From: Kondoa subrosea
Lineage: Eukaryota
Length of the DNA: 64,000 nt
Assembly (NCBI GenBank): GCA_039545335.1
Contig: BCIN01000002.1
Coordinates: forward strand, 124,001-188,000
Reading direction: 5' to 3'
Shown: in pieces, positions 1,078 through 34,150 of the stretch
Position numbering within the stretch: position 1 is the first letter of the stretch
How the letters are laid out: each line of letters starts with the position of its first letter
Notes under the pieces: generated by a model
Told to the model about the DNA's origin: nothing
The model's input: only the letters and a program-made list of their open reading frames with translations
The model's database searches: none
Position numbers and translations under genes: made by a program

Positions 1078-2021
1078 CTAAATCCATTGAGTCAGAACGG
1101 ACTCTACTTGATGAGATGAGAAGCCGACATTACTTACAGCTGGAGTTGTATGATTCCCTCCAAGTATCGCCGCGTGTTGGTTTCTGGTCGGACGCGGACT
1201 TGGGAGTTCACCAGGTCTGATTCCATTCCAATTGTGGATATAATGAAAAGCTTGCGGATTTTCGACTTTGTGGTAACCTCGAAGATTATGCTCAGGGTGG
1301 TAGTTGTCCGGATTGAATTTAGGATGATACCCAGTGGACGCAAAAACCTGGTATCCAAACTCATTGCTTTTAGCATGGTGAAGGTGAGGATTATGTAGAG
1401 GATGAAAAGCAGTCTTGTTCATAGACGGATGGAAAGCCTCTGGGTTTTTGAGTGGATGGAAACCTTCTCTGTTCAAAACTGGGTGATATTATGTTGAGCG
1501 TGTACTGGATGATACCCCGTAGGGTTGTCTGGTCGCCATAAATCAGGGTCAAATCAGCAAGTTCTTTCCAATTGATATTGGGATTGAAGTCAGGATGAAA
1601 AGCCACTTTGTTCAATTTTGGGTGGTATCCTTGAGGGTTCTTCTCTGGATGAAATTCATTTGCGTTATACGTTGGATGGAAGTTGTATGGGGAATGAATA
1701 GCATGGTAGCCTTTTAGATTATCTGGCCGCCAAGCATATGGATCTTGAAGCTCGATCTTCTTGTAATATTCATGTTGAAGCCTCATCTGAGGCTCCTCTG
1801 CTGCCATTCGATCTGGTGAGCGAACGAGTTTAGAGAATCTGCCATCTTCTGCTCGAATAGAATGAATAGAATGGTCACCGAAGGCGAAGGGAAGAGAATC
1901 TTGCATAAAGATAAGTCTATTACTCTCCAAAACCGTGGATGAAGGAGGGTAAAAGCTCGATGAGAAGATCTCTTCGTAATGGCAAATGAGAAGAAAGGGA
2001 CAGCTGGAGAAAATAACTCAT
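1078..2021 (-). pseudogene. His/Pro/Asn-rich 9-aa repeat protein (x[FY]HPxxNxx), frameshifted: pseudogene or assembly indels
   Basis: About 14 repeat units spread over three reading frames. Frame breaks near 1995, 1552 and 1488 have no GT-AG intron to rescue them. The 3' end is uncertain because a possible gtaagt donor lies near 1137. Confidence 0.55.
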
Positions 2022-2352
2022 GAAGGAGTGATGAATGCTCAATGCGAAGATAAAGCTATTAGCTGAGATGCTAAGGAGATTTTCACAATAGCGGGAGTGC
2101 GAGAGAAGTGACTCGGAGCTGTACAAAATCTGGCCTCAGCCTAGTGAAAGCACAGACAGAAGAAAAGGAATGAAGTCAGCAATATACGAGCAGATACAGA
2201 TCTAGACAGGCTTCGGCTCACTACGTAGGCGATTGAGGAAGAGACTTGGAAAACAAAATCCTGTAACTTACAAAATTTGAAGGCACGTCATGGGAAATTC
2301 AAGGCTTCTTTCTTCGCCAACAATATCCCTCCAGCCCTCACAATAATCAACA

Positions 2353-2843
2353 ATGGCAACACTAATAGGCTCCTTCGTCCAGCTCTTCACCACAATTCTT
2401 GTTCGTTCAAGCGACGGTTGTTTTCGCTCGGACTCTTTGAGCTGACATTTCATGCTAGGCTCTCTTCGGAAAGCTCTTCAAAGACTTCCTCGGTCTCTTC
2501 ACTGGCATCCTTGCCTTCTTCCTCGGTCTTGGTAACGCTTTCATTACTTTCGTGCTACGTGAGTCTTTTTACACGTCAGGCTGCAATGAGAGCACGAGCT
2601 CATGTGTGCTGTAGAGAACACTCTTCTACTTCTTCTTGTTGGTGGTGGATATGCTGGTCAGTCGAAATCTCACATTCGGTATTTGTTCTTGCTAACCTCA
2701 TCACTGAATTGACAGGCTGGATCTACAGTAAGCCTCAAAGTTTATTGACTTGGAAGTAGATTGAACGTGTTTTTATAGTTCAACAACAGAATGCATCAAA
2801 GACTCGTGCAGGAAATGTACCGGCGGTCAAGAAGAGCACTTGA
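2353..2843 (+). CDS. Small hydrophobic membrane protein (~88 aa, 5 exons)
   Basis: Four canonical GT-AG introns give MATLIGSFVQLFTTILALFGKLFKDFLGLFTGILAFFLGLGNAFITFVLQNTLLLLLVGGGYAGWIYIQQQNASK...KKST*. Not in the ORF track. Confidence 0.7.
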
Positions 2844-2962
2844 GTTGTCATAGCGTAAAATTCAAGGAATTAGGTCAAAGGCGCACAACAATTGTACATA
2901 ACTAATATGGAAGCATGCAAGGAAAGCCAAGCTTCGATCCCACAAGCAATTTGCAAAGGGTT

Positions 2963-4706
2963 TCAGTCAGTCGGCATATACATTCTCATGTGTCTATCTA
3001 TCAAATCCCCGATCTTCATCCTATTCAACATCTGTTCTTCTATGTCTGCTCTCTGTTATACTGTCAGCTTTGACCCAATTTTGACGTGCACACTCACCAA
3101 AGCGAACTGCACTCCTCTGCTCAACATACTGAACAGCTCTTTGTAAGGCTCATCAATCTTGAAGACTCCTCTTCCAGTCAATGCTGCATTTACCATCTTC
3201 TTGATCGTCTGATTCGTGCCTCAGCTGCTGTCCCGCTTTACAGGCGACCCAAAAACTCACAGCTTTATTCGCCTCCTTGATCGAGCCATCAGCAGGTTGT
3301 ACGCTCACACTTCTTCTCATCGCAGGTATCGTAGGACTTCTAACAAAAGGTAAATCAGGTAATTCATCAGGATATTGATCCAATTCTTCTTCCTCTTGTT
3401 CCATTTTCACTGGAATCGTAGTTTCTTCCATTTTCGCATCTTCTTCCTCTCTTTCTGCTATCGTCATATCTACAGGAGGAGGAGGAGATGTTCTCATTCG
3501 TTTACCTGCTCTACCTCTTCCGGGTGTGGGAGGAGCTCTTTTCGTCCCTCCAATCCCAGAAGAAGAAGTAGAAGAGGGTTTCGGTTGAGCAGCAAAAGGA
3601 TTACGCGCTGAGATTGTTGGTTTACTAGGTTTGGAGGCAAAGATCGCTGCTGAGCTCGATCGGGAGAAAGGACGAGAAGCTGTTGGGCCAGAAGAAGAAG
3701 AAGAAGAGGTTTTGGTAGTGTTATTGAGTGATAAGACTGGTTGAGAAGCTGAACGACGTAGTTTTTGCGCAAAGAGAGATTCTAGTGACCAGGTTCGAAT
3801 CTAATATATGAATTACAGCACTGAACGTACCTCTTGGTAAAGGATCATCTGGTCGAGGTGGTCTGACTTTGGCTTGAATCTTACGTCGAGCCAAGCGCAG
3901 TACCAAAGCAGCTGGATTATCTGTAGAAACTGAAGCGTAAAGAATGATGTCCATGGAAGCATCGACCGAGTCTGGAATTCCGCGCTCAGTGAAACTTGAG
4001 CGAAGCAAAAGCCTAGACATCTACCTATCGCTTCGCCCAATGTGAAGAGTAGACCTCGAGGTGACTTTCCATCAGAGTCGACCTACCTGATCCATCAATA
4101 ATGTATTGACATACGGAGATCAAACGCACCTCATCGAGACAAAAGCGCCCTTCGAACCATCTTTTCGTAGCAAGACATCTCTCATCCAGATAGACACGAA
4201 CGTCCATTTCTTCGGAAGCAGCTTGATCGATCTCTACCTTCTCTTTACCCTTCTTGAGCAATTCAAAGCGACTTTTTGTTCCTCTTGAACCTTTGGAAGC
4301 GCTTGGGGTAGCTGTGGTAGCCAGATCTACGGTTCTTTGGACTACTAGATCTTTATGCCGAAGCATCTCGAGATCTAGAAAGAGATCTGTAGCGGTGTTG
4401 GAAGTAGCATGAGGTGAGAATGGGTCTTCAACTTGAGGAGTAGAAGAAGAAGAAATTGTACGCAAAAGACTGGGTCGTTGAGTTGATGAAGAAGACTCTG
4501 TTGAGACAGGTAGATGTGCTACAAAGGCAATGCCTGAGAATTCTCAACTTCAGCATTCGCGCACGAAATTGGGTGACGCGAAACTTGGTCTCACCGTGTA
4601 ATTTGGTTCCTTCCACTGATAGACTGCCTCTCCAGAGTAGTCTGCAGTCATTTGGCTTGCTTTTGACGCGTGAAGCAGACGAGAAAGGCCCATCTTGTTG
4701 TGACAT
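2963..4706 (-). CDS. Sld7 C-terminal domain-containing protein
   Basis: N-terminal RLLWRGSL, central RPPRPDDP motif, and spliced C-terminus IKEANKATIKKMVNAALTGRGV...YKELFSMLSRGVQFALR...IDRHMRMY resemble basidiomycete Sld7_C proteins. Confidence 0.7.
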
Positions 4707-24130: not shown

Positions 24131-24488
24131 AAAGCAGGCGAAGCGATCGTATCGTCTCGCACTTGGATTTTGGCCAATCAGAGCAGGAAGATAGTGAACT
24201 CGAGCAAAGTGACACAGATCTTGACTCAGCATCAGTCGGACTTGCGATAGTCTCGCTGAAAAATGCAGGACATGATGTAACAGCAGACAGCCTATAGTGC
24301 GAGACCAAGCTGAGAAAATCAGATAAGCTGGCGCAGTAATGGGCACGTGAAAGAGTAAATAAGCTCTTCCGTTCCCCACAGCGAAAAGCAAGACAGAGAG
24401 ACAAATACAAACCCGCCAGATTGTGCGAGACAAATTTGCGAATAAGGTTGATCCAGGGCAACCATTAGCAAATATACCCAAATGAACT

Positions 24489-27400
24489 ATGGCTGACGAT
24501 GATACCATCACCTTATCGACCATTCTTGGGGCGGCATGGGGTGGCCAAAGAAGAGCGACTTCGCCCCCCTCGAGTCCCAATGCTGTAAAGAGAGGTCCTG
24601 CAACACGCAACGCTCTGCGCAGTCCACCTCGCTTGAAACTGGAACTACCTGACAAGAGGACCAGCAAAGCTACAGATTGGTCACGTTCTTCATATGCGGA
24701 GGCAAGTCAAGCGAACAAATCTCCTACTAGTCCCACCTCTCAGCCGCCTTCACCCCTTGCTGAACCTGTTCATTCCTTTCAGGGTGGTCCTGTGCACTCT
24801 TTTCATGGACCGCCAGCTTCAGATGGCTTCTTTTATTCTGGCACTACCCAACTTAGGAAACAGTCAATTGCAGAGCACAACACTATCCCTTACTTTCCAT
24901 CTCGCTCTTCTCCTCTTGCTTCGCCAGATTCGCCTAATCGCAATTCTCCCACTGCCAGCTATTTCACAGCCCGAGGCGAAAACGCTACACCACCGCGTAG
25001 TCCAAGAACCCCGCCTAGATCCCCAATGGCTCGTCCGTCGCCTTTACAACGAAACAATAGCGGCAATAGCATAAGACTGCATCGCCGTATGTCTTCGAAA
25101 GATCGCGTGAATTATTTCGATCCCTCAAGTCCTCCTACAATTTTGCCCAGAAAGTCTTCTGTCCAGTACACGGACGAGTCGCCTCGTTTGGAGCCTAGGC
25201 GGTCTTCCTTGTTGCATTCAGAAAACTCACCCCGCCTATCCCAAAGAACCTCTTCTTTGCCGTTTTCAGATAATGCACCCAGAAGTCCGCCTTTACAATT
25301 CACAGAGGAAGAGAGTCTTGCTTCTTCCAGCGATTCGGCTCCTTCATCAAGAAGGCGTCGAAGTAGACCATCTCTCTCTATCCCGCCCAAGCAAGAAAAG
25401 GTGTTGCCATTGACGCCCGAAGAATCAGAAAGTATAGCGCTAGCAGAAGCAAAGGTCAAATTAGCAATGAAACGACAAAGGTCTATCAAAGAGCTTGTTA
25501 CAACGGAATGGACTTATGCTCAAGATTTGGCAATCATACGAGATGTCTACCTAGCTAGAGCAGAAGGGACAAGCATTGAAGTAATCATAGGAAAGATATC
25601 CGCAGCTGGATGGGCCCCGCCTGCAACACCTCATACAGTACATGAAGACTTTCAGCAATACCTTTCTCCAGCCTCATCTGCAACCTCAAATACGTCTGTA
25701 AATAAGCCGCAAATCGTTTCTCTGTCTGCTACTACCTCAAATTCGTCAACAAACGCCTCATCAAAGAGACATCGGTCAACATCTTCCGTTTCATCCAAGA
25801 AATCTGCTCAAGAAGTATTGCCGCACCTATCTCCTTTCTTTGAACTAAAGCAAACCTTCACTTCTCCCATCATGATACGAGAAGCTTCGCAACAATCAAA
25901 TGTCTCTTCAGCATCCACTTCCGTACCTTCTTCTATTCCTGAAACATCTATGTCTGCATCGGATGTTAAAGCCATATTCCTCAACATTACCGAAATCGCT
26001 ACTTTCGCTTCCGCCTTTTCTGGACTTCTAGACGCTGCAGCAACTCCTGACTCAAGTTCAGATAAGATCGGAGAAGCTTTCTTGGAAATGTTGCCCCGGA
26101 TCCAATCGCTTTATCAGATCTATTGCGCGAGACATGGAGCTGCTTTAGTTCGCTTGGAAGAATTGGAGTCTAGTGGGAAATTGGACGACTATACTAGAGA
26201 GATGAGCGAGTTGACTAAAGGGTTGACCCAAAGTTGGAACTTGAATGCTTTGTTGATCAAACCTGTTCAAAGATGTGCGTTGTTCCCATTTTTGGCGCAA
26301 GATTTGAATTTGATTGTTAATGTCGCCTAGGTCTTAAATACCCTCTACTACTAGAAGCCATTCTTTCTTGTACTCCAGAAGACCACCCAGATCGCAAAAC
26401 CCTGCAGGTCGCCCTAACTCGAATGTTGCAAGTTGCTCAAGAAATGAATGAAGCAAAGAAACGCAGCGAATTGATCTCTCGAATTGTCAATATCCCATCC
26501 AACAAGACTCGCAAAGCACCTGCAGCTTCTTCTTCTGCTTCTTCTAAACAAACGACCGAATCTACCGCTCGCCGACCTTTGTTCAGTTCGCGGAGAAGTC
26601 GATCAGCGAGCAATGTGAAACCAGAAGATATGCCCCGTAGAGTCTCAGCTCCTTCAGCCGTTCCACAGGTACCTTCCACCTTCTCGCAAAGTTTAAGCAA
26701 GAAGATAGGTCGATCAAGTCAGAAATTCAAGCAAGCAGCTGGTTTTCGATCTGATGTGCCTTTGGATCCTACTTTACTCAATCAACTCTGTGCTTCTTTT
26801 GAACTTCAATTTGAATCGCTCAAAAGATTTCATGAAGAAGTCTTTTCGTGGAGCGCGAGTTTGGGAACTGTGCTGAAACGACAAAGAAGCTTGACAGCAA
26901 CTTGGGTGGGTGTATATAAACCTCTAGAGGATGAGGTAGAAGTGAGAGGTGGCATGCTGGATGTGTTGCTCATATATGATAAGCTGCTCAAGCATTGTCA
27001 CAACACTATTTGGCAAGATATGGTCAGCCGTTTTCTCTCGCCCTTGTCATTGTATACTGACATCTTCTGCAGTGCACTCAAATTGATCGGCAAATTATAC
27101 CAAACGTGGAGACTCTGCTTGAACAATTCGATAAACCGAAACTGCTCATATATAAGAGATCGCTGAAGCTGTTGGATCATCAAAGAGCTCGCAAAGTCTC
27201 AGCAGAATCCAGCTCTGCCTTCAATGATTATCATTCGCTGTCTCTTGTTCTTACGGACGAACTGCCTATCTTTCTGTCCTCCATCCTTCAGGCATTCGAT
27301 ATCGTGGTAGTAGCTTTGGCGCAACTTCAGTCTGCTACCTTCCGAAAATTCAATGAGGTGTTTGAAGACTTCAAGAAGTCCGCCTTTGTCGATCTGGAGC

Positions 27401-28089
27401 CTGGCAGTTCGACAATAACACATTTCTGGAATCAGTATTCAAGCTTTGCAGATATTCTTGAGGGCTTCACCTCGACATCTCCTAGTAAGCCGGTGCTCTG
27501 TTCTGGAAATTATACCATTGCTCATGCTGCGGTAGATCGGGTCTCCGCTATAACCAATTCACCAGACATTGGCAGGAGAGGGTCAGCATCAACAACCGCT
27601 AGTTCTCTACGAGCCGAACGACCCTCTCGCTCAAGAACATCTTCCACCAATTCTCTACGATCAGCAGCTTCTTCTGCATTGGGTCTATCTCCCGTTTCTC
27701 CTCGCCCTCGGTCCAATACAATTGGCGCTTCTACCGCCAAGAGACAGGCATCAGGCAATATTGATACTAGTAATCGCGATAGCGTGGCTTCCGAAGCCGC
27801 ATCTTTCCAATCTTTCCAGTTCTCAGCGAAAGCTTCAAATTCTTCTTCATCGCCACCAGATGAAGATGGTTTGGAAAAGCTTCCAGTATTATATCAAGCT
27901 GTGTCAATTACGGAAAGCAAAACAGAAGGAGAACGTCAAGGCTATCCATTACTAATTTCGTCGCCTGGGGAGGAACTGGCTATACTATACGAAGAGAAAG
28001 AGACGGAAGAGCAATGGCTCTTTGCACGAGCTCTCACACGAAACAAAGTTGGGTTTATAAGGTCTGCATCAGTAATTACGTTACGATAA
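24489..28089 (+). CDS. RhoGEF (DH) + BAR-like + SH3-like protein (Gef1/DNMBP-like architecture)
   Basis: DH motifs KRQRSIKELVTTEWTYAQDL and LLIKPVQRCLKYPLLL. Helical region LIYKRSLKLLDH...LTDELPIFL. C-terminal SH3-like segment GEELAIL...EQWLFAR...VGFIRSASV. Confidence 0.85.
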
Positions 28090-28166: not shown

Positions 28167-30983
28167 TTATACACTTATATCCAGCACTGATTTACCACCG
28201 CGAAGGTCGCTAGCGCTGGGCATCTTACCTCTGATGTCGAAAACTCGAAAATCAGTAATCGCTCGTTCGTCCATTAAGATGCTTACGCTCGCATCAATTC
28301 CGAGACTTGAGTCACTACCGGATCATAGCCCATGCTAGCAGCAGCTAGGACTTGTTCGCCCTCTGCAAAACCGTATATTGTTAGCATACGATGGACCTTA
28401 GGTGCAAAAGCTCACTTGTGTAGAAGGCTGCAAACTTGAGGTCTTCTAGTGACCCTTGAATGATAACATCGTCACTAAAAAGTGTTAGCAGAAGATTAGT
28501 GCATCAATGGTGGAACGCTTACTAGTCGGTTGCATGTCCAGCATATCTTTGTAAGGTTAAATAAACATCAGGTCCATTAGACTAGACAGCCTGCGAAAAA
28601 CTGACCTCAATTGAGAGCCCTGGATATTCCCATATTAGCATAAAACGACATCAGAGGGAGAAAAATACCATTGCAGACCAGAAGTAAGGTACTGAAGGCA
28701 CGCAACGGAGCATCAGCACCAGCGGCGAAGGCAAACATGTATCGCACTAACCTTTAGTATACTCTGTAGGATGTCCGGCAATGTGATTGGCTGCAGCTCG
28801 TCCAACTATAAGATAAGAAACCGCGTCAGGTCTGAATGCATTTGAAGCGCCTATGCTGGACTCACGATTTTGGGCAACTAAAGAATCACAAGGCATCAGT
28901 TTTGAAAAAGTATGCCAAAGGAAAAAGCGAAGTACCATTCCAGTGCTCGACTGAATCAAGTATCAGCAATTGATAGCCAAAAAATCTTGTCGAGCACTTA
29001 CTTCGTCCGGAAGTTTCGGTTCCTGGGTGAATGAAGCGAGCAATCTACGGTCTCGCTTCAGACGTAGCCCATTACTGGCGGCAGACAATCGAACTCACAT
29101 CACCAACAGCATAGATGTCTTTCTCGTTTTTCACCAATGTATCCTGACCAACGTCAATGCCTCCATCTTTCTGAACATCAAAGGAGTCTTTCAAGAACGC
29201 GGTAGCTGGCTTGACACCAACAGCACAGATCAAGACCTAGCGCAATAGTCAGCTACGAAATGCATGCTAGACTCATGGCGAACATCAGCTTGAATAGTTG
29301 AGCCGTTCTCGAGATCAACAGAACCAACGCGAGACGGATCTTTCTCTATACAGGTGGACATGTGAGTCGATTATATTTGTTATTGAGGCTGGACTTACCA
29401 GAAGGATTGATTTTCTTGACTGAACCTTCGCCAATGACGAATTTGATGCCTTTGTCCGTGTAAGACTTCACTAGACGCTGCGCTACCTTTTCTCCAAGAA
29501 CAGGCTTGACAGCTATGCGCGAAGATATCATAGATCAGCCAAGGCTGAATCCTGATCTATCTCCACGTACGATAGGCGGGTTCAATGATAGTAACAGCTG
29601 CTACTTTGCCAACTAATCCGTTAGCAGCTTCCATACCAATGAAAGATCCGCCAACTGATAACGACAAGGCATAAGAATGAAAGCAAGTCACTCAGTCTCT
29701 TAGCTTACTAATGACTAGATGCTTGCTCTTGTCATCGCCGATATCTGTGTTAATATAAGATGGGACACGACCCGATCTTTGTGGACGAACCTTTGCTAAT
29801 ATTCTGAGCATGTGTAATATCACGAAGCTTGTGAACGCCTTCGAGCTTGAATCTGCCTAGAAGTATGAATATCTTTGATCTGGTAACCAGAAAGAACTAT
29901 ACTGACCCTTCGATAGGTAGATCATTAGGGGAAGCGCCAACTGCTAACACCAGCTTATCGTAGCCCAACTCGGAACCGTCGGCAAGCTTGACAACTTTCT
30001 TCTGCTTGTCGACACCAGAAGCAGTCTTTTGCTGCACTGTGATATTCATCTCTTTCAATTGATCTTCAGAGCGAAGTTCGATCTTCTTTGGATCGGTGAT
30101 GAAAGCTTTGGATAACTTGGTTCGGTCGAGTGGAAGATTGTTCTCTTTGGTAAGGATAGTGACTGATCCTTCATAGCCAGCCTGTCCGAAGAAGATTACT
30201 GATGAGTCTCAGACAGACACATTCAGATCTTGACAGACTTGACGTAATCCTTCTGCGCAAGCCAATCCGGCGGCTGAGACTTCTATCAGCTACTTTCAGT
30301 GACATGATATAACTCAAACTGACCACCACCACCAACAATAACGACTCCCTTATCAGCATCTTTCTTTCCTTTAGTCTTGATAGGCTGTCTCACGCCTTTC
30401 TTCAACTCATCAACTGAAGCTTCAACATAGATCGCATCGTCTTCCACGCTGACTTTGTACTTGGTCAACGAATCTAAAGCTGGGGCACTACGGCGAATCA
30501 AGAAGCAAAGGTATTAGCAAACAGAGTAATCTTATTGCTGAGGGAATTCTCGGCATACTCTTCGATATCGCCTGTGTTGGCATTGAAGCAAGCTCCCTGA
30601 AGCTGAAATCAGTGCATGCCTATCGCGAGTCAGAGAAAAGGACTTGCATGCCATGGACAAGTGACTGTGAGGGTTTGCATTAGCTTCGGACAGAACTTGA
30701 CGTAGACAATTGCTCCTTACGTCTTCCGTCTGAAGTCAAAACACCCTTGACCAAAGGAGCGCCGTAATGAGTGCCTGCCGTCAGAAGGTAAGACACCCTC
30801 GACCAAAGGAGCGCTGGAATGAGTACATTTTGGAGCTAAAGCGCTCAATTGTCCATTGGTTTTCAACAACAAAACTTTATGATCGCCAACATCGACTTCC
30901 TCCTTGAAGCCATCTTTTATGGATGAGGCAGTATGGGAAGCGATCTTGTATTTCTGTGAAGTAGAAGAAGAGGTAGTCGCCAT
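28167..30983 (-). CDS. Rieske + FAD/NAD(P) oxidoreductase (AIF3/Nfrl-like apoptosis-inducing-factor homolog), highly multi-exonic
   Basis: Spliced Rieske [67 protein letters not shown]. Confidence 0.92.
30723..30826 (-). repeat. 52-nt imperfect tandem duplication; the upstream copy (30775-30826) functions as a GT-AG intron
   Basis: gtactcattccagcgctcctttggtcgagggtgtcttaccttctgacggcag versus gcactcattacggcgctcctttggtcaagggtgttttgacttcagacggaag: 43/52 identical. Confidence 0.9.
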
Positions 30984-31656
30984 TTTGGCTTGATTCATAA
31001 GGTTTGCCATGGTTCGTGTAGCTGTTACATTTCATTGATCAGTATGTTGATCTTCGATTTAGCAGTTACAAAGGATAAGCGCAGCACAGAAACCCAGACC
31101 GGACAGAGGCATGTATCACAGGACAAGGGAGCGAGTCAGTCCGAATATGACGAACATGAAGATGCAGTTGTTCCCATTTGATGGAGCACAGCATCACCAG
31201 TAGGCCGCATATAGTACTGCAGTGGATGACAGGCGATCCTAGGCAAAAGCAGCCAGAATACAACGCATTCGATCGAGTTTCAATCCAACTTCGCGATGAC
31301 AAATGGACTTGCGAAGCTGGACAGAATCATTGTAGAGCGCTAACGCTTACGTTGTATGTATCTTGCAGCAGGTCGAAACGCGCTGAGCATAAACTGTTGA
31401 TAGTGCAAGGATAAGATGATCGAGCCAATCAGTGACGAAGCATTTGGTGAATTCCTTACATAATCCTGAACTGCTTTACATACATACATACAGCTGTACA
31501 ATTACACGACTTATTCACAGCCTAAGCTCTTACATCCCTTGATACAAACGAATTCGAAGTGAACGTGTTACAAACGTCTGTCCTATTATAGAAACTGAGC
31601 GATGTGGATCAGCGTCTGCATACAGAGCAGAGAAGAGACCGACATAACATCATTCT

Positions 31657-32834: not shown

Positions 32835-34150
32835 ATGTACGGCAATAATCAAGGCTACAACGGACAGCAACAGTGAGCGATCAAGTCTGAGAACAGATGG
32901 CTCAGGCTCTGATAAAGGGCGTCCGTTCAGATACGGGCAGCAAGCGCCGAACCAATATGGAAATCAGCAATATGGAAACCAGCAATACGGAGCTCCTCCG
33001 CCTCAGCAAGGATATCAGCAGCAAGGATATCAGCAACAGGGTCCTCCAGGAGTCAGTCTGCGCTACAAATGGTGCAGAATTGTGTGTCTTATACTTTACG
33101 TAATCGCACAGGGTTATCAGCAAGGCGGCTATCAATCCCAGGGCGGATATCAGCAGCAGCAAGGAGGTAGAGGTCCCTCTTCTCAGCCAGTATGTCTTCT
33201 TCTGAAGGCTCGTTGTTGTATTCGAATCTTTACACTCGGAAGCAGGTAGACCCAGAAATCGCTCAATGGTTTCAGACGTGAGTGAAGCTCGGATTACCGC
33301 AGTTAGATGCGTTGATTGACTGTGTTGAAAACTCACAGTGTCGACCGAGATGGATCAGGTAAGCTTTGACCTCTAGCCAAGCTCAAGTCGTACTCCGTTC
33401 ATGCTTGAACAGGCGTCATCAATGTGGACGAACTAAGGGCAGCTCTTCGGAACGGTGACTGGAGCGAGTTCGATATCGAGTGCGACGTTTGCTATTATCA
33501 CTGTCGATAAGTTCAACTGAGATGTTGTTGCGCTGCACAGTACTGTCAAACTCTTGATGTCCATGTTCGATACGGATCGTACAGGAAGTATCAACATGCA
33601 AGAATTCGCAGGGGTTTGGAAATGTTCGTTTCTTTCCAAAATACAAGTGATGAGCTGAAAATTGCATGAAGACATCAATCAATGGAAGGGGGTCTTTTCC
33701 CACTTTGATCGCGATCGATCAGGTAGTATCGAGGGAAGGGAATTGGGTGACGCGATGGCAGCTTTTGGTTTCCCTTTAAACCCGCAACTCATAATGCAAC
33801 TACAAAAGAAATATGGTCAGTCCACCTTTCTTTGGAACTAAACAAGGTAAGGAGCTGAATCTGATGAATTAAGTTCAATCAGGTACTACACCTCAACGGA
33901 ATCAAGGTGGTGCCGGTGGTTTCGCTCCTCCTGTTCAAGGAGGAGGAGATGCAGTTACTTTTGATCGATTCATTCAATGCTGTGTTGCAGTCAAAAGCTT
34001 GACTGAAGCTTTCAGGAAAGCAGAGTGAGTTTTTCTCAATCTTTCCGTTCTGAATTTGTTGATAGCGAGAAATTCAATAGCCCTCAAGGAAGAGGAAGTG
34101 CTACTCTTACATACGATCAATTCATGTCTATGATCTTAGCGGCTCCTTAG
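32835..34150 (+). CDS. PEF1: Penta-EF-hand calcium-binding protein (peflin/ALG-2-like)
   Basis: G/Y/Q/P-rich N-terminus; EF hands VDRDGSGVINVDEL, FDTDRTGSINMQEF and FDRDRSGSIEGREL; VTFDRFIQCCV; LTYDQFMSMIL. Confidence 0.9.

Follow-up and report, generated by a model that had tools for sequence, protein, structure and literature searches.

The window, a stretch of 64,000 nucleotides (nt) of Kondoa subrosea DNA (assembly GCA_039545335.1, contig BCIN01000002.1, positions 124,001 to 188,000), carries on its minus strand a gene which, judged by homology, is an AIF-like (AIFM3-like) Rieske/flavin adenine dinucleotide (FAD)-dependent oxidoreductase. Within the Cys codon of its first Rieske CxH box lies a 52-nt segment that is a tandem duplicate of the coding sequence following it, and that is probably removed from the message as a short spliceosomal intron. 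The features on which this account depends are listed below, in window positions.

28170..31390, minus strand: coding sequence of the AIF-like Rieske/FAD oxidoreductase, 24 exons and 23 introns, 1695 nt, 565 amino acids (spliced alignment to the ortholog P0002)
28169-28167, minus strand: TAA stop codon of the AIF-like gene
30827..31021, minus strand: exon 2, 195 nt, its last base being the first base of the Cys codon (spliced alignment)
30775..30826, minus strand: copy 1, candidate U2-type intron 2, phase 1 (spliced alignment to P0002, best of 92 site pairs)
30780..30784, minus strand: CTGAC, the sole NTRAY branch-point-like motif of copy 1; copy 2 reads TCAGAC there
30721..30774, minus strand: exon 3, 54 nt, consisting of copy 2 plus 2 nt (spliced alignment)
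30723..30774, minus strand: copy 2, the first 52 nt of exon 3, holding the rest of the Cys codon and Thr-His-Tyr-Gly to Asp-Gly-Arg; 17 residues identical to contig L001/protein P0002

The gene model was obtained by a custom dynamic-programming spliced alignment of P0002 to the window. The coding sequence runs through its 1695 nt with no stop and no frameshift, both Rieske boxes (CxH...CxxH) are present in the spliced model, and the other 22 introns all have GT/GC-AG ends. Introns 2-23 measure 46-71 nt and intron 1 measures 329 nt. The candidate, intron 2, splits its codon in phase 1. P0002, whose open reading frame (ORF) on contig L001 is 87.8% identical to the window protein, carries precomputed assignments to PF00355, PF07992, PF00070 and PF14759; the Rieske, Pyr_redox_2 and Reductase_C domains are read from such precomputed Pfam data of the relatives and extend to the window protein by identity. 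Distant homologs are labelled ‘Apoptosis-inducing factor 1’ or ‘Rieske domain-containing protein’ by their sources. The gene is strongly fragmented, with exons of 12, 14, 15 and 17 nt (28866-28877, 28606-28619, 28936-28950 and 30648-30664), and 13 of its 23 introns are in phase 1.

Relatives were sought by protein search. A query with the 103-amino-acid exon identified three close relatives, P0001, P0002 and P0003, which correspond to contigs L002, L001 and L003, respectively; Lipomyces matched that query at 49%. A search with full-length P0002 found no closer annotated relatives beyond these three, the best named matches being at most 50% identical (Planoprotostelium, Protomyces and Savitreella). 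When the read-through ORF 30717-31031 was used as query at near lengths, no genomic ORF fragments of close relatives were found.

Copy 1 (30826-30775) and copy 2 (30774-30723) align without gaps, 43 of the 52 positions being identical. The unit of duplication measures exactly 52 nt, with the bases immediately outside it mismatching on either side (30827 vs 30775 and 30774 vs 30722). Tandem Repeats Finder reports the pair with a period of 52, 1.9 copies, 85% matches and a score of 149, and a separate repeat search recovered the same two segments. At a match probability of 0.27 per site, the binomial probability of 43 or more matches in 52 is 8e-17. An annotation-free scan of the whole window at offsets 40-80, amounting to 2,619,121 position-by-offset tests, returned this pair as the sole site with at least 70% identity; at offset 52 the window gives a mean of 13.3 matches with a standard deviation of 3.3, and the 64 kb contain no other tandem repeat with a period above 15. 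A comparison of introns with their flanks was made on the 23 introns of the gene. Copy 1 matches its downstream exon with a Smith-Waterman z of 23.1, while the other 22 introns bear no resemblance to either flank (z of 2.9 or less, 17-39% identity). Copy 1 is a tandem duplicate of the adjoining coding sequence, and chance similarity is excluded.

Around the site 92 GT/GC-AG pairs were tried, 30 of which leave a product in frame and free of stops. Excision of 30826-30775 gives the best score against the ortholog (261, the next best being 248), and it is the only excision yielding both the ortholog length and an unaltered Rieske box. Unless the 52 nt are excised the reading frame is lost; with excision it is restored, and the spliced product has the same length in this region as P0002 and P0001. 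Copy 1 begins with GT (30826-30825) and ends with AG (30776-30775), the 5’ site reading GTACTC and the 3’ site CAG, and at the positions matching its three signals copy 2 has GC, AAG and TCAGAC. Its 52 nt fall within the length range of introns 2-23. Precedents for weak sites occur in the same gene, namely GTACTT in intron 16, GTATTT in intron 19, one AAG acceptor and one GC-AG intron. By its ends, branch motif, length, frame and a site strength inside the range of the gene, copy 1 thus has the predicted make-up of a U2-type intron, although one with weak signals. Translational bypass or a programmed frameshift was also considered and set aside, given the GT...AG ends and a gene that has 22 other spliceosomal introns.

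The copies differ at unit positions 2, 10, 12, 27, 35, 38, 39, 44 and 50. In the exon frame five of these nine differences are synonymous and four are replacements. The nucleotides of L001-L003 served as outgroups for polarising them. At all four replacement differences (positions 10, 12, 27 and 39) the three relatives agree with copy 2, so that the changes Tyr>Ser, Gly>Ser, Lys>Glu and Thr>Pro belong to copy 1; where Tyr-Gly is invariant in alignment A1, copy 1 would read Ser-Ser. Copy 2 shows zero replacements, its 17 residues being identical to P0002 of the closest relative. The derived state at position 35 is apparently also in copy 1, and position 38 is ambiguous, with L001 siding with copy 1 while L002 and L003 have a third base. 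Because all four replacements lie in copy 1 and none in copy 2, copy 1 appears to drift like non-coding DNA and copy 2 to be held by selection. The differences that make the signals (positions 2, 44 and 50) are synonymous in the exon frame, and they can be read in two ways: either copy 1 gained GT, CTGAC and CAG, or copy 2 lost the twins it had at birth through synonymous changes.

To this point the preliminary description of the locus is borne out in its particulars. It had placed the two 52-nt copies in exact register with 43 matches, counted five of nine differences as synonymous, read GT, CAG and CTGAC in copy 1, and held that removal of copy 1 restores the first Rieske box whereas its retention frameshifts the gene; the same coordinates, letters, identity and counts were obtained here, and the excision it favoured is the best among the site pairs tried.

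The gene as a whole is constrained. Against the L001 ORF the window protein gives a nonsynonymous distance (dN) of 0.081 and a synonymous distance (dS) of 1.79, a dN/dS of about 0.05, and against L002 a dN of 0.111 and a dS of 2.01. Neutral decay was simulated at the minimal per-site change of copy 1 (5/52 = 0.096). A dead gene kept its frame open in 0.15% of the simulated coding sequences (P = 0.0015), and for the splice dinucleotides of the other 22 introns, 88 bases in all, the probability of every one being intact is 1.4e-4. Since the gene is intact and such an outcome of neutral decay is improbable, the 52 nt would have to leave the mRNA, which is the main, if indirect, argument for splicing. 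By Jukes-Cantor distance the two copies lie 0.197 apart, compared with 1.8-2.0 for the dS that separates the window gene from the nearest relatives known. If copy 1 evolves neutrally, the duplication would be roughly ten times younger than the splits from those relatives. The intron had earlier been called young, and in these relative terms it may be; at 17% divergence between the copies it is not brand new.

We consider it likely, with a probability of roughly 0.8, that a 52-bp tandem duplication of coding sequence took place here and that the upstream copy is now spliced as a short U2-type intron. The basis for this consists of the duplication, its exact register, the logic of the reading frame, a relaxed copy 1 beside a conserved copy 2, and an intact, constrained gene. 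From these, removal by the spliceosome, spliceability at or soon after birth and an origin more recent than the divergence from the nearest relatives sampled are suggested. The duplicated piece would span the second base of the first-box Cys codon to the AG of an Arg codon 17 codons on. The 5’ splice site would then be the GT at the left breakpoint of the duplication, the branch point a CTGAC inherited from Ser-Asp codons, and the 3’ splice site the CAG at the junction of the copies, and splicing would place copy 2 directly behind the first Cys-codon base, reproducing the original coding sequence exactly. GT and AG stand 50 nt apart in the parent exon; since the former lies on the left breakpoint and the latter where the two copies meet, the intron would equal exactly one copy. 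AGGT is absent from both copies, and under the genetic code the parent codons (Lys-Cys-Thr on the left, Gly-Arg on the right) are unable to spell it at either breakpoint. The two interpretive claims made earlier, that the intron arose by duplication of the next exon and that no pre-existing AGGT site was needed, therefore fit what was found: the former is supported by the register, the uniqueness of the pair across the window and the z of 23.1, the latter by the lack of AGGT in either copy.

Several observations tell against this interpretation. The signals of copy 1 are poor by the standards of its own gene. In leave-one-out scoring its 5’ site reaches 3.5 bits, third lowest of 23 (range 2.7-9.8), and its 3’ site 1.4 bits, second lowest of 23 (range 1.1-7.0); exonic decoys score at least as well for 7 of 74 GT and 40 of 107 AG dinucleotides. 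The branch A lies just 6 nt before the intron end, compared with 10-22 nt in most other introns, and the guanine-plus-cytosine content of copy 1 is an exon-like 0.56 vs 0.44 in the other introns. The contrast of four replacements to none is marginal (Fisher one-sided P = 0.058, with an estimated 38 or so replacement sites per copy). Positions 2, 44 and 50, which make the signals, are saturated synonymous sites at a dS of 1.8-2.0 and are not polarisable; the Cys codon is TGC in the two nearest relatives and TGT in the third, and an origin of GT from TGT is likewise not polarisable. Comparative evidence is of limited help. Contigs L001-L003 are without introns at all 22 + 2 window positions (in the AIF-like gene and the neighbouring RhoGEF gene), but they are cDNA-like, mRNA-sized or merged convergent transcripts, so that their lack of the intron is uninformative. 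Six contigs of the same series (L011, L032, L050, L052, L054 and L058) are similarly without an intron that 41 of the 44 genomic contigs possess. Among the 44 distant genomic loci (37 distinct) none has an intron at residue 80 in phase 1, but the other 22 positions of the window gene are equally unshared. In that comparison 8 of 77 loci were dropped for an N-terminal alignment score below 280, and no account was taken of the unreliable alignments below residue 40.

Several other explanations were weighed. If the duplication were real yet unspliced, the gene would be frameshifted past the first Rieske box and would be a young pseudogene or give a truncated product. In its favour, the signals of copy 1 are among the weakest of the gene and are often equalled by exonic decoys. 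On the other hand, all 24 exons are intact and conserved with a dN/dS of about 0.05, the simulated neutral decay leaves so open a frame and so complete a set of splice dinucleotides with probabilities of only 0.0015 and 1.4e-4, and replacements number zero in copy 2 and four in copy 1, and we regard this explanation as improbable. Slightly less probable again is the use of another excision of about 52 nt, for example with copy 2 removed and copy 1 coding, or of mixed sites giving alternative products. Two such excisions are in frame and stop-free, 30774-30723 (GCACTC...AAG, scoring 236) and 30814-30775 (GCGCTC...CAG, 40 nt, scoring 248), and one GC donor and one AAG acceptor are used elsewhere in the gene. 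However, the alternatives swap the invariant Tyr-Gly for Ser-Ser or insert residues, the ends of copy 2 score 1.0 and -0.2 bits as splice sites vs 3.5 and 1.4 for copy 1, and it is copy 2, not copy 1, that is protein-identical to the relatives.

We give no greater credence to the idea that the position was already taken by an older intron, into whose interior exon sequence was later written by local conversion or duplication. Introns are very numerous in this lineage, and with 23 positions unshared with distant homologs many unsampled old positions could exist. The similarity, however, extends over the intron from first to last base and no further on either side, and its offset is the length of the intron; this is what one tandem duplication would be expected to leave, whereas overwriting needs a coincidence. 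The slightest chance of all is left to an artefact of assembly or sequencing that created a false tandem copy. Tandem copies can indeed be assembly errors, and the two Logan runs consulted are DNA from a single sample, which may itself have been used for the assembly. Yet the contigs rebuilt separately from these runs (word depth 143.8 and 55.1) span 30300-31300 with 0 differences and 0 gaps, so both copies are kept where the preliminary description had envisaged that reads might hold one. Unchanged contigs rebuilt from reads, together with nine differences between the copies, rule out a false assembly duplicate.

The remaining introns of the gene that deserve description are the following.

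30665..30720, minus strand: intron 3, 56 nt, GTAAGG...CTAAT...CAG, beginning 2 nt past the end of copy 2 (spliced alignment)
30597..30647, minus strand: intron 4, 51 nt, GC-AG (GCAAGT...CAG), phase 0, separating the His codon from the Gly codon in the second Rieske box (spliced alignment)
28547-28605, minus strand: intron 20, with an apparent AAG end rather than YAG (homology alone)

Distant genomic homologs have one to three reliable introns each, compared with 23 in the window gene. In 41 of 44 of them a GT-AG intron is found 4 nt downstream of the intron 4 site, in phase 1 of the next-but-one codon, and this offset may reflect intron sliding or replacement. At the 5’ end of L001 (1-128) the sequence diverges from P0002 just before Ile-Gln-Pro-Pro, some two codons away from window intron 1 (329 nt); a retained first intron or another start may be responsible.

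Beyond the AIF-like gene, the window holds a RhoGEF-domain gene (24486-28083, plus strand) convergent with it, the stop codons being about 85 nt apart. The same convergent pair is found on L001 of the relative, where RhoGEF occupies 1883-3514 on the minus strand. Over its final 1.7 kb the window RhoGEF gene has just two introns (27023-27072 and 27485-27535), a much lower number than in its AIF-like neighbour. Two adjoining arrays of 15-nt tandem repeats (2.6 and 2.1 copies) lie at 32953-33035 on the plus strand, in or beside a cyclin-domain gene region. JmjC, Fe-ADH, GIT_SHD, mitochondrial carrier, cyclin, SNF5, DnaJ, helicase_C and ABC2 domains occur in other ORFs of the window, a content typical for nuclear DNA of a fungus. 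A look-up of the SNF5-like ORF gave a weak lean towards Ascomycota (score 0.93), which does not bear out the basidiomycete setting of the preliminary description. The guanine-plus-cytosine content of the window is 0.452, and Rfam and tRNA scans of it gave no matches.

What makes the locus useful is that parent and daughter stand side by side and are 83% alike. It can be read which codons became the branch point and the splice sites, whether the twin sites in the exon were silenced by synonymous changes (TGC for TGT, TCA for TCT, GGA for GGC), and at what rate a new intron drifts. In a setting of short introns, it appears, a duplicate made up wholly of coding sequence can function as an intron even though AGGT is lacking and its signals are very weak. 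A wider proposal is that small frame-shifting coding duplications with latent, low-information signals are a recurrent source of the roughly 50-nt introns of this gene, the 52-nt element being the one gain seen before its origin had faded. We think this unlikely; if true, it would offer a natural before/after pair for the substitutions that fix a new intron and silence its exon twin sites.

The gain of introns through tandem genomic duplication, the Rogers model, is established in the literature (PMC4974935, PMC3443670), and the vertebrate ATP2A1 gain has been re-enacted in vivo (Hellsten et al. 2011, PMC3265369). The preliminary description spoke of few clear natural examples. This was overstated, as a 2012 review tabulates 188 tandem-duplication events, with Cryptococcus among the species and one in vivo demonstration (PMC3443670), and fungal cases have been published (PMC3629103, PMC4317165). 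As those reports present it, gained introns with a known source amount to 2 of 62 in fission yeast (PMC3629103) and to one in Neurospora (PMC4317165). Introner-like elements and transposon-derived introns represent another, lineage-specific route of intron gain according to PMC4974935. Such an origin was rejected here: among the 23 introns of the gene the top mutual score is 19, equal to the shuffle maximum of 19, and the source is the adjacent exon rather than a mobile family.

As in the Rogers model and in ATP2A1, the duplicated coding segment in the window would supply all signals, with branch point and pyrimidines derived from former codons, and one unit would be excised so that the coding sequence is precisely restored. 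The difference is that their AGGT lies inside the duplicate, whereas in the window there is no AGGT and the intron is one copy. In addition, the ATP2A1 intron is more than 420 million years old, its duplication having been inferred and its splicing shown experimentally (PMC3265369), while the window copies are still 83% identical and their splicing is predicted from sequence alone.

Among fungi, the fission-yeast gains SPOG_01682 and SOCG_00815 (Zhu & Niu 2013, PMC3629103) are similar in that the intron resembles the neighbouring exon, the units are non-identical and canonical AGGT is lacking, theirs being AGGC as reported. They differ in comprising several copies of a 24-nt in-frame array backed by expressed sequence tags, whereas the window has a single 52-nt frame-shifting unit known from DNA. 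The gain NCU09740T0-2 of Neurospora tetrasperma (Sun et al. 2015, PMC4317165) is likewise a fungal intron similar to an adjacent exon and read as a tandem-duplication gain; as described there, it is 614 bp long, 100% identical to the 5’ exon and very recent, while the window intron is 52 nt long, 83% identical to the 3’ exon and of an age at which selection on the two copies can already be seen to differ. In the potato RdRp gain (Ma et al. 2016, PMC4974935) tandem duplication also operated outside the AGGT rule, and its authors urge that wider sources of signals be considered. According to the report, however, that duplicate took in some of an intron already present, whose branch site, pyrimidine tract and 3’ site were put to use again, whereas the duplicate in the window is purely coding. 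The window case would be a further instance of a mechanism documented in vertebrates, fission yeast, Neurospora and potato, distinguished by a minimal, purely coding unit, an intron coextensive with one copy, the absence of AGGT and a divergence between the copies that is still legible.

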